From Chitinophaga pinensis (GTDB lineage Bacteria; Bacteroidota; Bacteroidia; UBA7662; JAIXUI01): a DNA stretch of 64,000 bases. Below are positions 42,498-47,300 of the stretch, piece after piece. The notes below the pieces were generated by a model that ran no database searches, was not told the origin of the DNA, and saw only the letters and a list, made by a program, of their open reading frames with translations. The DNA is taken from positions 20,260 to 84,259 of the forward strand of contig CALSBM010000002.1 in NCBI GenBank assembly GCA_943373175.1, given 5' to 3'. The translations under genes were made by a program, and so were the position numbers. Numbering within the stretch: the stretch's first letter is position 1; every line of letters starts with the position of its first letter.

Positions 42498-42505
42498 TAG
42501 ATTTG
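42498..42505 (+). promoter_or_regulatory. Promoter -7 element (TAGATTTG) for the TolB-like gene
   Basis: TAnnTTTG located 5 nt before the ATG at 42511. Confidence 0.55.
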
Positions 42506-42510
42506 TGGCC

Positions 42511-43617
42511 ATGAAAAAACACCTAAGGCTCTTATTGATTCCGATAGCCTTTTACGGATTTGCATTTACAACAGGGCCTATCAATAAAACTTCTACTCCC
42601 GCCACTAACGGATCCGACAGTTTGTTGTATCCAGAAGAAAAGCACTTTAGTAATATCCGCCAATTGACCTCTGGAGGCGACAACGCCGAAGCGTACTGGA
42701 GTTTTGATAGCAGGCATTTAATTTTTCAATCCAACAATAAGCAATGGGGGGTGCAATGTGATCAGATTTTCCTCATCAAGGATGAAACGCCCGCCCCTGC
42801 CGATATTGCTCCTTCTATGCTAAGTAGCGGAAAAGGAAGAACCACTTGTGCGTATTTTTTGCCCGGAAACAAATCTGTTTTGTTTGCTACAACCGAAGCA
42901 GGCGGTGCAGCTTGTCCGCCTGAGCCTCAGCGAAGAGCCGATGGCAAATACCTGTGGCCTATTTATCCAAGCTTTGATATTGTAGTAACCAATTTGAAAG
43001 GCAAAGTTCAAAAAAAATTGACCAACCATCCCGGATACGATGCTGAGGCTACTGTATCGCCGGATGGGAAGAAAATAGTTTTTACTTCTGATCGAAGTGG
43101 AGACCTCGAATTATGGACTATGGACATCAATGGGAAAAATCTTCGTCAGGTGACCAAGGGGCTTGGCTATGATGGAGGTGCTTTCTTCTCGCCTGACTCC
43201 AAAAGACTTGTTTTCAGAGCATCACGGCCTACTTCTGATTCTGAAATCAGTGAGTACAAAGCCTTGCTTAAAGAAGGTTTGGTTGCTCCTACTAGTATGG
43301 AAATCTACACTTGTAACTTAGATGGAAGTAAACTAAAACAGGTAACCCGCTTAGGCAAAGCCAATTGGGCTCCTTTCTTCCATCCGTCAGGGAAGAAAAT
43401 TATTTTTTCATCCAATCATAAGAGTAAGCGTGGATTTCAGTTTAACCTGTTCATGATTAATGAAGACGGAACCGGATTGGAGCAAATTTCGTATGACAAG
43501 GTGTTCGATGCGTTTCCTATGTTTTCTCCTAATGGCAAAAAGCTGGTTTTTTCTTCGAACCGTAATAACAAAGGAACAAGAGATACCAACATTTTTGCAG
43601 TTGACTGGAAAGATTAA
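42511..43617 (+). CDS. TolB-like periplasmic beta-propeller (PD40 repeats)
   Basis: Signal peptide and repeated SPDGKKIVFTS / FSPDSKRLVF / FHPSGKKIIFSS / FSPNGKKLVFSS motifs. Confidence 0.88.
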   Translation: MKKHLRLLLIPIAFYGFAFTTGPINKTSTPATNGSDSLLYPEEKHFSNIRQLTSGGDNAEAYWSFDSRHLIFQSNNKQWGVQCDQIFLIKDETPAPADIAPSMLSSGKGRTTCAYFLPGNKSVLFATTEAGGAACPPEPQRRADGKYLWPIYPSFDIVVTNLKGKVQKKLTNHPGYDAEATVSPDGKKIVFTSDRSGDLELWTMDINGKNLRQVTKGLGYDGGAFFSPDSKRLVFRASRPTSDSEISEYKALLKEGLVAPTSMEIYTCNLDGSKLKQVTRLGKANWAPFFHPSGKKIIFSSNHKSKRGFQFNLFMINEDGTGLEQISYDKVFDAFPMFSPNGKKLVFSSNRNNKGTRDTNIFAVDWKD

Positions 43618-45379: not shown

Positions 45380-45387
45380 TACCTTTG
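45380..45387 (+). promoter_or_regulatory. Promoter -7 element (TACCTTTG) abutting the start of the HYC/CC/PP ORF
   Basis: TAnnTTTG(C) lies 1 nt before an ATG and 4 nt before an in-frame GTG. Confidence 0.6.
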
Positions 45388-45388
45388 C

Positions 45389-45772
45389 ATGGTGAAAAAG
45401 TTAGTCCGTCTGGTTTTAGTAATGGCGTATCTGCTTGCGGTAAGCGGAGTAAGCATTGTGCGCCATTACTGTGCCGACGAGCTGGCTTCAATAAGTCTGA
45501 ATTCTGATTCAGGCTGTGGCAGTTGTTCTGATACTGAGGATGATTGTTGTAGCACAGAGGTAACTCAATCTGAGGTTAATCACGACCACTCTCCGGCTAC
45601 TTCCGTTTGTTTCAGTCCTTGGTTTCAAGTATTGAAATCAGTACTTCCACCCTCCTACTCGCTTTGGTTAGTTCAAAAAGCTGAACGAGTTACACACTTT
45701 TGGGAGCGAGGTCCTCCCTTATATAAGAACCTCCATCATTTCCTTTCTTGGGTCGCTAACTGGAGAAATTAG
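45389..45772 (+). CDS. HYC_CC_PP-type small membrane/secreted protein with C-terminal RGPP motif
   Basis: Hydrophobic N-terminus, then RHYC, CGSC, DDCC, HDH and ERGPP. The start is ATG 45389 or GTG 45392. Confidence 0.75.
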   Translation: MVKKLVRLVLVMAYLLAVSGVSIVRHYCADELASISLNSDSGCGSCSDTEDDCCSTEVTQSEVNHDHSPATSVCFSPWFQVLKSVLPPSYSLWLVQKAERVTHFWERGPPLYKNLHHFLSWVANWRN

Positions 45773-45862
45773 CCTTGATTATTCTGCACGAAGTTATCGT
45801 GCGATGTCTTGTGCTTACTGTTGAACATGTTCAACCCGTTTTCTCCATTTAAAACCCAACCA

Positions 45863-46408
45863 ATGAAAAATCTTTTTTTGAGCATCATGCTCTTTTTAGC
45901 TGTACTGAGCAGCCAAGCCCAAACCATGACCTCAGCAACCCTTCAAATTTCCGGACTTACCTGTTCTATGTGTCAGAAGTCCACGTATAAAGCACTCTTG
46001 TCACTCCCATTTGTAAAGTCAATTGAAACTGACTTGGCGAAAGCGAAATTTATTCTGCAATTCAAAACGGATGTAGCAGTTGATCCGGACTTAATTTCGA
46101 AAGAAGTTGAAGATGCCGGCTTTGCAATTGCCGGTTTAACCATAGCGGTTTCCATGCCCAAGGTTTCCATTGAAAAGGATCAGCATCTTAAAATAGGTCA
46201 GCGTTGGTATCACTTTGTAAATTCAGCCGGTAAAACGGTTGAAGGAGTTGTTAATCTTCAATTCATTGACAAACACTTTGTTGAAGATTCTCAATTCTTG
46301 GTTTATTCTAACAAGACCGATTATGGTTGCTATAAAACAGGAAAAATGGCTGCTTGCTGCCATTCCGGGGATCAACCTTCGGGTAGAATTTATCACGTTA
46401 CGCTCTGA
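45863..46408 (+). CDS. Exported heavy-metal-associated (HMA) domain protein
   Basis: Signal peptide, GLTCSMC metal motif, HMA fold and C-terminal GCYKTG...ACCH...YHVTL. Confidence 0.88.
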   Translation: MKNLFLSIMLFLAVLSSQAQTMTSATLQISGLTCSMCQKSTYKALLSLPFVKSIETDLAKAKFILQFKTDVAVDPDLISKEVEDAGFAIAGLTIAVSMPKVSIEKDQHLKIGQRWYHFVNSAGKTVEGVVNLQFIDKHFVEDSQFLVYSNKTDYGCYKTGKMAACCHSGDQPSGRIYHVTL

Positions 46409-47244
46409 TGCGCTATTTACGCATGTTGTTCCTGTCGATTTTTTTATTGACAGGAACAAACGGCTGGTGTCAGGAGCTTTATGTAGCCACTGACCCAGCT
46501 TCAAATATGCCAGCCAAGTCATTAGGTTTCCGCCTCAATTACAAGGGTATGGAGTCTCCTTCGCGAATTATGGGACGTTATCAGGCTGAAGTTAGAGCAG
46601 GACTTACCAAGAAACTGATGGTGATGGGCGCTTTTAGCTTTTCCGATTACTATCAATTGAAAACACAGTTTGAGGGAGTGCAATTAGGGATGCAATACCG
46701 ACTTTTTAGCAAAGACCGGGTACATCGTCATTTACGTGGTGCACTTTGGGCACGTTACAGCCATTCGCTGAATCCGCAGCATTTGAGCGACCTTAATTTT
46801 TCAGGAGATCATAGTGGAATAAGTTTGGGTGGAACTTTAACTCAGCTTATCCATAAAGTGGCCTTTTCAACCACTATTGGATGGAGCAATGTCTATTACA
46901 CACAGCGTGAATCCGGATTTGACCAAGGGAATACCATCACAGGTAGCCTTTCGATTGGTGGATTAGCTTATCCTTTGAAATACAGTTCCAGCTTTAAGAA
47001 AACTAATGTCAATCTCTACGCTGAAATGCTGGGAGGCTGGAACAGTGGCTATGAAGGAGTTATTGGCCTGCATCCTATTCAAAACGGGCACTGGTTAGAT
47101 TTACAGCCGGCAATTCAATTCATTTTTAATTCGCAAACACGCCTTGATTTAGCCTATCGGTTTGAATTAGATGCCAATGTTAGGCGCATGGGACCGAATA
47201 TGGTGATGTTTCGTTTGGAACATTTGCTTTTTAAGGCTTGGTAA
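46408..47244 (+). CDS. Hypothetical outer-membrane beta-barrel protein
   Basis: Signal peptide, alternating aromatic/hydrophobic strands and a C-terminal aromatic residue. The start overlaps the HMA gene stop. Confidence 0.65.
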   Translation: MRYLRMLFLSIFLLTGTNGWCQELYVATDPASNMPAKSLGFRLNYKGMESPSRIMGRYQAEVRAGLTKKLMVMGAFSFSDYYQLKTQFEGVQLGMQYRLFSKDRVHRHLRGALWARYSHSLNPQHLSDLNFSGDHSGISLGGTLTQLIHKVAFSTTIGWSNVYYTQRESGFDQGNTITGSLSIGGLAYPLKYSSSFKKTNVNLYAEMLGGWNSGYEGVIGLHPIQNGHWLDLQPAIQFIFNSQTRLDLAYRFELDANVRRMGPNMVMFRLEHLLFKAW

Positions 47245-47262
47245 TAATAAACTGATCTATCT

Positions 47263-47300
47263 CCGCCTGTGGATTTTGGTGAGAAGCTATTCACAGGCGG
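47263..47300. other. Stem-loop without a U tract
   Basis: CCGCCTGTGGAT...ATTCACAGGCGG just after the barrel gene stop. Confidence 0.55.

Follow-up and report, generated by a model that had tools for sequence, protein, structure and literature searches.

A conserved gene pair for an exported HMA protein and a predicted 12-stranded outer-membrane barrel in Bacteroidota, a candidate device for soft-metal handling

Most accounts let copper and mercury ions pass the outer membrane through general porins, through TonB-dependent receptors (OprC, for example) or by plain diffusion. Here we describe a three-gene unit in a 64,000-nucleotide (nt) stretch of Chitinophaga pinensis DNA (the window, by whose numbering all positions are given) that could provide a small alternative route, in which a passive plugged barrel is tied to its own periplasmic metal binder. 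The unit consists of a head gene of the HYC_CC_PP family, a gene for an exported protein with a heavy-metal-associated (HMA) domain followed by a second domain, and a gene for a predicted outer-membrane β-barrel. We give an even chance to the reading that it handles a thiophilic metal, most likely copper, at the outer membrane, with the chaperone docking on the barrel and the metal being captured inwards; the whole account is drawn from genomic context and predicted structure. Systems that combine a metallochaperone in the periplasm with a channel in the outer membrane are already known (mer, pco, cus), and so is the barrel fold. The apparent novelties are the use of a COG4313-like barrel as partner of an HMA protein, the second domain of the chaperone, whose fold lists are dominated by the HMA domain and which, like the barrel family, is without a Pfam or NCBIfam model, and the connection with a sister pair that lies in mer-type loci. 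Our literature search returned no paper on the HMA-barrel pair, the barrel family or HYC_CC_PP, and nothing relevant on DUF3347 and copper, on exported HMA proteins and the outer membrane in Bacteroidota, or on mer operons with an outer-membrane barrel.

In the MerP-MerT system, as proposed for the window, an exported CxxC HMA protein takes the soft metal in the periplasm, and a barrel family homologous to the one described here (hhalign probability 96.7%) is found, together with exported HMA genes, next to MerT(P) and MerA. The HMA protein of the window nevertheless falls below the MerP cut-off and carries an extra C-terminal domain, in a genome without MerA or MerT. Described COG4313 channels are 12-stranded barrels with about 14 N-terminal residues in the lumen and a conserved Glu at mature position 2; with this COG4313/PF13557 group (Pput2725, 4rl8) the window barrel shares the 12-stranded barrel of about 260 residues, the short conserved N-terminus and the Glu at mature position 2, whereas known members take up hydrophobic molecules without any link to an HMA gene, and the window barrel has no Pfam match. 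A small outer-membrane barrel is likewise encoded with periplasmic copper-binding proteins in the case of PcoB/CopB with PcoC/PcoA, where the direction of flux is disputed, uptake being reported by one study (PMC9210255) and efflux by another (PMC12509749). The partner of PcoB is CopC or a multicopper oxidase instead of an HMA protein, and the window barrel bears only a generic likeness to it (Z 12.6), having no Met/His-rich disordered N-terminus and no match in a profile search of PDB sequences. FapF shares the fold (Z 21.8), but its N-terminal coiled-coil/plug-helix extension is missing from the window barrel and none of 80 related loci holds a fap-like gene. Cassettes composed of HYC_CC_PP, a TonB receptor and an exported HMA protein share with the unit the head family, the exported HMA protein and the presence of a transporter in the outer membrane; the window has a passive 12-stranded barrel instead, and an HMA protein with a C-terminal domain of its own.

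Co-occurrence of the HMA and barrel genes

A search space of 5.8 billion proteins yielded hundreds of relatives for each of the HMA protein and the barrel, the named ones mostly from Chitinophagaceae and Sphingobacteriales and the only functional name being "copper chaperone" for the HMA protein, while an exhaustive search of representatives gave 218 barrel clusters, none of them outside the family. We read 80 genome loci with a barrel relative (from Chitinophaga, Pedobacter, Mucilaginibacter, Segetibacter and others), leaving the closest relatives (76-81% identity, Logan contigs) out of the context counts, together with an even sample of 301 Bacteroidota genomes. The initial annotation of the locus had named a co-occurrence survey as a check on the pair. 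All 80 loci have a two-domain HMA gene directly 5' of the barrel gene and in the same orientation, and the barrel, found in 17 of the 301 genomes, has the HMA gene adjacent in all 17. The pairing is not due to chance. Of 75 loci, 56 have the barrel ATG at -44 to +30 nt from the HMA stop codon and most of the others have one gene inserted; a HYC_CC_PP gene stands 5' of the HMA gene in 77 of the 80. Because three distant variants (with barrels of about 340 amino acids) keep the pair with no adjoining HYC_CC_PP match, the HMA and barrel genes can be taken as the core of the unit. The minimal two-gene unit first proposed left out the head gene, for which these three variants indeed show no match.

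A full-length two-domain HMA protein without the barrel was met in only one of the 301 genomes (G287). The gene order there (L083:6485-10874) is Porin_10, HYC_CC_PP, an extra HMA gene, the two-domain HMA gene, a TlpA-like redoxin gene and a hybrid histidine kinase gene, and the barrel seems to have been lost or replaced. A protein of 424 amino acids labelled Russula earlei (P0101) was considered as an HMA-barrel fusion and dismissed as a eukaryotic gene-call artefact on bacterial DNA: the C-terminus of the HMA protein, its stop codon and the signal peptide of the barrel are lost at the join, and the sequence is probably Chitinophagaceae contamination in a fungal assembly. Longer fused forms did not appear in the protein search, which is weak evidence. 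Genes for Porin_10, succinyl-CoA synthetase and purine nucleoside phosphorylase that lie upstream in Chitinophaga were also discarded as members of the unit, being a matter of lineage synteny; the Porin_10 gene of the window's genome sits on another contig.

Weak matches of the barrel profile led to a sister family in another class of Bacteroidota. In one genome of that class (G057, L112:3703-7798) the genes for a MerR-family regulator, a barrel, an exported HMA protein, MerTP (241 bits, cut-off 180) and MerA (543 bits, cut-off 454) follow one another, and the barrel aligns with the window barrel family over 223 columns (hhalign E 3e-10) and matches seven window-family barrels directly in BLASTP. 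Relatives of this barrel were found in four further genomes and 80 metagenome loci. Among the 45 metagenome loci of at least 6 kb, on which the counts are based, an exported HMA gene adjoins the sister barrel in 34, and MerT(P) or MerA lies within 6 kb of it in 24 (MerA itself in 5). Since the sister barrel also adjoins an exported HMA gene, and does so beside MerT(P)/MerA, the COG4313-like barrel with an exported HMA protein can be regarded as a recurrent two-gene device, which in the mer branch would supply a path leading inwards. The usual mer scheme has no component in the outer membrane, and a review shows passage through that membrane as diffusion; if our reading is true, the mer branch would be the outer-membrane Hg(II) step that the canonical model leaves to diffusion. 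Further mer-type loci with a barrel gene by an exported HMA gene are L120, L122, L141, L142, L161 and L164.

The chaperone, the barrel and the head gene

The N-terminus of the HMA protein, MKNLFLSIMLFLAVLSSQAQ, has a basic residue, a hydrophobic core and an A-Q junction that are kept across relatives. The signal peptide, as read from the sequence, covers residues 1-20 (reading MKNLFLSIMLFLAVLSSQA, with Q as the next residue), and the AlphaFold2 model has a low-confidence N-terminal helix in this region. With such a typical export signal the protein is presumably exported, in agreement with the signal peptide that had been noticed ahead of the CxxC HMA domain, although an exported HMA protein is not unusual per se, MerP being exported too. 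The HMA domain (residues 26-87) matches Pfam PF00403 at 29.8 bits against a gathering threshold of 24.8. Its metal-site motif GLTCSMC is coded at 45953-45973, the pattern GLTCSxC is invariant in 80 of 80 relatives, and the CxxC is the only ligand site common to all the loci. The AlphaFold2 model, built from a 36-relative alignment, is one compact two-domain body (predicted local distance difference test, pLDDT, 88.1; predicted template modelling score, pTM, 0.82), in which the GLTCSxC loop sits on the β-α-β-β-α-β HMA fold; Foldseek superimposes the HMA part on CopZ and Ccc2a with template modelling scores of 0.79-0.87 and root-mean-square deviations (rmsd) of 1.6-1.9, MerP also reaching about 0.8. 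By sequence, the closest solved relatives of the domain are copper-ATPase domains and CopZ, then MerP. NCBIfam models for MerP and MerTP match it weakly, and the protein stays below the cut-offs of both the MerP equivalog TIGR02052 (23.4 bits, cut-off 92.55) and the CopZ-type NF033795 (33.6 bits, cut-off 91). A cytoplasmic single-domain chaperone of the CopZ type is ruled out by this score, by the signal peptide and by the second domain.

This second domain (residues 88-181) is mainly of β structure, with strands within 88-134, two short helices and a last strand at 175-180, the conserved RIYHVT that closes the protein. Foldseek and VIA found no fold match of its own, their lists being filled by matches of the HMA domain, and the ESM Atlas gave only sub-threshold leads to unnamed Bacteroidota clusters. 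The domain carries H108, H117, C156, C165, C166, H167, Y177 and H178. The 36 nearest relatives all keep H108, H117, C156, C165, C166 and H178, while H167 varies. The C...CCH...YH ending singled out by the initial annotation is therefore present in the window but is no general trait: the ligand set (H108, H117, C156, C165, C166 and an aromatic residue followed by H178) is complete in 36 of the 80 loci, all of a Chitinophagaceae type that includes the window, partial in a few, and absent from Pedobacter and Mucilaginibacter types which are still paired with a barrel. Because it is complete in only these 36 paired loci, the Cys/His set is best seen, from the alignments, as a lineage-specific second site and not as the basis of the partnership. 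In 13 loci a gene for a TlpA-like redoxin lies between the HMA and barrel genes or just 3' of the barrel gene. All 13 are of the Cys-bearing second-domain type (L022 lacking the CC pair only), and this company fits a need to keep the second-domain thiols reduced.

The third gene was taken in the initial annotation to encode a β-barrel, and structure prediction, the check named there beforehand, bears this out with a confident 12-stranded model (pLDDT 87.5, pTM 0.80; strands within residues 38-274). The putative signal peptide covers residues 1-21. The mature N-terminus, QELYVATDPASNMP, is coded at 46471-46512, and its pattern QELY..EPASN, 100% conserved in the 80 loci and in the three distant variants, is the most conserved feature of the barrel. 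The QELYVATDPASNMP segment is the probable lumen plug. The mature N-terminus has 16 residues before the strands and no Met/His run, and the pLDDT is about 60 for residues 21-30. No Pfam or NCBIfam model matches the barrel (Pfam at E up to 1), nor does its profile match PDB sequences at E up to 10. Structural comparison by VIA placed FapF (Z 21.8, rmsd 2.8 over 230 residues) and the COG4313 channel Pput2725 (4rl8; Z 21.4, rmsd 2.8 over 224 residues, model residues 27-274 on 4rl8 4-268) ahead of the 12-stranded porins KdgM/NanC (Z 17-19) and of 12-stranded autotransporter β-domains (Z 17-18), the copper channel PcoB (7pge, Z 12.6) coming below many unrelated 12-stranded barrels; the Foldseek ranking agrees. 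What had been called an unknown porin has instead a COG4313/FapF-like predicted fold (VIA Z about 21) with a strictly conserved N-terminal segment, and the model resembles a plugged 12-stranded channel of this structural type.

A sequence link to PF13557 can be followed indirectly, from the window barrel family to the G057 barrel (hhalign 96.7%), from there to a barrel of genome G024 (39% identity) and on to PF13557 (48 bits). Directly, 2 of 40 relatives of the window barrel match PF13557 weakly (best E 1.2e-4; Pfam cut-off 22 bits), and hhalign of the barrel family against two small home-made PF13557 alignments gave probabilities of 6-32%. In one genome (G063, L114:6685-8372) a genuine PF13557 barrel of 66.6 bits stands tail to tail with a window-family barrel. 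The conserved residues facing the lumen of the model are K96, R98, H108, R110, N200, N202, E206, D231, Q237 and M71. The three distant variants retain K96, R98, H108, R110, E206, Q237 and, as Glu, D231; M71, invariant in the 80 loci, is Ser in them. We count such a polar, charged and strictly conserved lumen in favour of the passage of metal ions.

The product of the head gene scores 39.3 bits against NCBIfam NF047658 (cut-off 28) and has an N-terminal hydrophobic helix followed by HYC, CGSC, CC and RGPP motifs, all conserved across 79 aligned sequences. HYC_CC_PP genes occur in 74 of the 301 Bacteroidota genomes. Among five further loci that we read (L123:1146-4042, L124:1057-8003, L125:427-8031, L126:801-8090 and L127:1051-8002), HYC_CC_PP heads a unit of a TonB receptor and an exported HMA protein in one and CusA/CzcA-type resistance-nodulation-division (RND) units with a TolC-like gene in the other four; CusA/CzcA reached 786 bits against a cut-off of 701 in the one RND locus scored, and an open reading frame (ORF) for a P-type ATPase lies beside two of the four RND units, copper-type with 628 bits in the one scored. 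The family is accordingly found in units of opposite direction. A described parallel is CruR (DUF2946), a copper-sensing upstream ORF of Bordetella that heads bp2923-bfrG-bp2921 in Bordetella pertussis (PMC9426467). Like HYC_CC_PP, CruR is a small first gene with an export signal, Cys motifs and R-[AG]-P-P, and outer-membrane transporters, copper chaperones and AhpC/TSA-type redoxins occur in the units of both. HYC_CC_PP has no DUF2946 match, however; its RGPP lies about 17 residues from the C-terminus against three in CruR, its CGSC and CC stand 60 and 52 residues before RGPP against a spacing of 45 in CruR, and it heads efflux units as well, so that the likeness in layout is one of analogy only. 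HYC_CC_PP may act as a regulatory leader of the CruR kind or be a Cys-rich partner anchored in the membrane.

Metal, direction and competing explanations

A role in metal handling, as put forward in the initial annotation, is upheld by the context of the relatives and by the sister pairs in mer-type loci. A regulator of the AraC family with an N-terminal CxxC (HMA-like) segment, about 189 amino acids long, follows the triad in 32 of the 80 loci (e.g. L043:8575-9141) and is a candidate copper sensor, and other neighbours in relatives include an HMA P-type ATPase, DUF3347, an HMA-MauE protein, extra exported HMA proteins and TonB receptors. The genome of the window, which is 99.4% complete, has no match to MerT, and its best MerA score, 365 bits, stays below the cut-off of 454; homologues of MerT, MerA or the MerR type were not found within 7 kb in any of the 80 related loci. 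Since mer genes are absent, the neighbours of the relatives are copper-type and the HMA domain is nearest to copper-ATPase domains and CopZ, copper seems the likeliest metal, with silver or other soft metals as alternatives.

From the observed gene structure, the strict co-occurrence and the metal-type neighbourhoods of the relatives and of the sister family, together with the predicted folds, the following course of events can be proposed. The exported HMA protein would sit in the periplasm and hold the metal at its CxxC; its second domain would probably dock the chaperone on the barrel and, in the Chitinophagaceae-type lineage, could supply an additional Cys/His metal site. The plugged barrel would be a passive passage through the outer membrane, the periplasmic binder pulling the net flux inwards and thereby capturing scarce metal, and HYC_CC_PP would be a metal-linked accessory. 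We lean towards the inward direction because the barrel has no energy source and its periplasmic partner would bind tightly, and because the homologous sister pairs, next to MerT(P)/MerA, form part of a path leading inwards. It is tempting to extend this to all pairs of a COG4313-like barrel and an exported HMA protein as a dedicated soft-metal entry route of Bacteroidota, with an Hg(II) branch in mer loci and a copper branch with a docking chaperone, although we put forward this generalization tentatively and with less than even confidence.

Several observations speak against inward copper capture. About half of the paired orthologues are without the Cys/His site in the second domain; the barrel lumen offers few classic soft-metal ligands, and the window has R63 (46594-46596) and M73 (46624-46626) at positions where about 90% of relatives carry Met and His; the solved structures nearest in fold transport no ions but hydrophobic molecules (COG4313) or unfolded polypeptide (FapF); HYC_CC_PP heads units of both directions; the unit of the window is surrounded by housekeeping genes with no other metal gene; the literature search gave no paper or experiment on either protein family; and CopA-type ATPases, AraC-HMA regulators and CusA units, which are among the neighbours, fit detoxification as much as uptake. 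The last point leads to the outward alternative, in which the HMA protein would gather periplasmic copper, for instance from CopA-type ATPases, and release it via the barrel as a small detoxification outlet comparable to the one proposed for PcoB/CopB. The triads of relatives do adjoin HMA P-type ATPases, AraC-HMA regulators and DUF3347, the head family is shared with CusA/CzcA efflux units, the spread is patchy as for an accessory trait (17 of 301 genomes, 3 of 11 in one genus), and the 2025 study of PcoB assigns that channel to efflux (PMC12509749). Release is, on the other hand, disfavoured by a passive barrel combined with a tight periplasmic binder, the homologous pairs by MerT(P)/MerA sit in an inward pathway, no resistance gene lies near the window copy, and PcoB has been reported to facilitate uptake (PMC9210255). 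We consider the outward role unlikely, but deserving of serious attention.

Given that sister pairs of barrel and HMA genes occupy mer-type loci, and that the HMA domain of the window is itself weakly matched by the NCBIfam MerP and MerTP models, the pair might also be an entry device for mercury, or another non-copper soft metal, which stands without the rest of the mer system. We find this improbable: the nearly complete genome and the 80 related loci are devoid of the mer homologues as detailed above, and entry of Hg(II) without a reductase would harm the cell. Slightly more doubtful still is a barrel that, like the characterized COG4313 channels, lets in small molecules of a hydrophobic or amphipathic kind, perhaps thiol compounds or metals in a lipophilic complex, with the HMA protein serving redox or buffering purposes instead of acting as a docking chaperone. 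The rank of Pput2725 among the best folds, the weak PF13557 matches of two family members, the N-terminal plug and proposed lateral exit of the COG4313 family and the genuine PF13557 barrel that adjoins the module in one genome would all suit such a substrate, but HMA-gene adjacency in two separate barrel families would not, nor would the polar and charged residues facing the lumen, and catabolic genes are not conserved near the 80 loci. Least credible to us is that the barrel exports the HMA or HYC_CC_PP protein, or anchors it at the cell surface, as a FapF-like or split-autotransporter-like pore, so that metal would be bound outside. FapF, the top fold match, is a polypeptide transporter, autotransporter β-domains follow not far behind, and the HMA protein ends in the conserved strand RIYHVT; however, there is no coiled coil or linker, the N-terminal segment of the barrel being so short, a fused form was not found in the searches, and the sister pairs supply periplasmic and inner-membrane Mer proteins.

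Should the proposed role of the unit prove right, bacterial soft-metal handling would gain a component in the outer membrane, some of the COG4313-like barrel superfamily would acquire a function, and the uncharacterized HYC_CC_PP genes would be known to head a third kind of unit. The pair spans Chitinophagaceae, Sphingobacteriaceae and relatives, with its sister branch in mer-type loci.

Organization of the transcription unit and its flanks

The features of the locus are collected in Table 1. The TGA of the HMA gene and the ATG of the barrel gene have one base in common, as the initial annotation had seen when it let the barrel gene start on the HMA stop codon, and we infer that the two genes are translationally coupled. 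The Bacteroidota-type -7 element TACCTTTG ends one base 5' of the ATG of the HYC_CC_PP gene and is likely to be the promoter of the whole unit. The motif scan of the window found no further such element between the HYC_CC_PP and HMA genes, and a sigma-70 promoter scan is uninformative for Bacteroidota. The pattern TANNTTTG matches only 34 times when the two strands of the 64-kb window are taken together, which makes it rarer than in shuffled sequences; one match falls in the 57-nt gap 3' of the gene for a ROK kinase. Beyond the barrel gene, 19 nt past its stop codon and between convergent genes, begins an inverted repeat that probably marks the end of the transcript, although a strict terminator scan passed over it since its loop is longer than 8 nt. 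With a promoter element 5', none internally and the inverted repeat 3', positions 45380-47300 may be read as one three-gene transcription unit. RNA folding of 45765-45880, around the spacer with its hairpin and palindrome, gave no significant stability (z -1.46).

Table 1. Features of the HYC_CC_PP-HMA-barrel unit, in window coordinates
Feature	Position	Strand	Basis or remark
Bacteroidota-type -7 element TACCTTTG	45380..45387	+	motif scan; putative promoter
HYC_CC_PP family head gene, 127 amino acids	45389..45772	+	NF047658 match and motifs
Spacer of 90 nt between HYC_CC_PP and HMA genes	45773..45862	+	
Hairpin in the 90-nt spacer	45785-45803		
Perfect 16-bp palindrome GTTGAACATGTTCAAC in the spacer, 27 nt 5' of the HMA start codon	45820-45835		
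Exported two-domain HMA protein, 181 amino acids	45863..46408	+	Pfam, alignment, AlphaFold2
TGATG stop/start overlap of HMA and barrel genes	46406..46410	+	ORF reading
Outer-membrane 12-stranded β-barrel, 278 amino acids	46408..47244	+	AlphaFold2, VIA, Foldseek, conservation
Inverted repeat, 12-nt arms 92% complementary, 14-nt loop	47263..47300	+	probable transcript end

Upstream of the unit lies the ROK kinase gene, and downstream follow convergent acyl-CoA-ligase-like and prfA genes. No gene for a P-type ATPase, a TonB receptor or a MerR regulator flanks the three genes in the window, in line with what had been noted for the unit at the outset.

If TACCTTTG is the promoter, the messenger would be leaderless or nearly so. 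The -7 element TAnnTTTG stands 0-1 nt before a start codon at two sites of the window, at 45380-45391 and at 42498-42513, where TAGATTTG ends on the GTG at 42505. Because this short distance occurs twice, it suggests that leaderless mRNAs, or mRNAs with very short leaders, are made in this genome.

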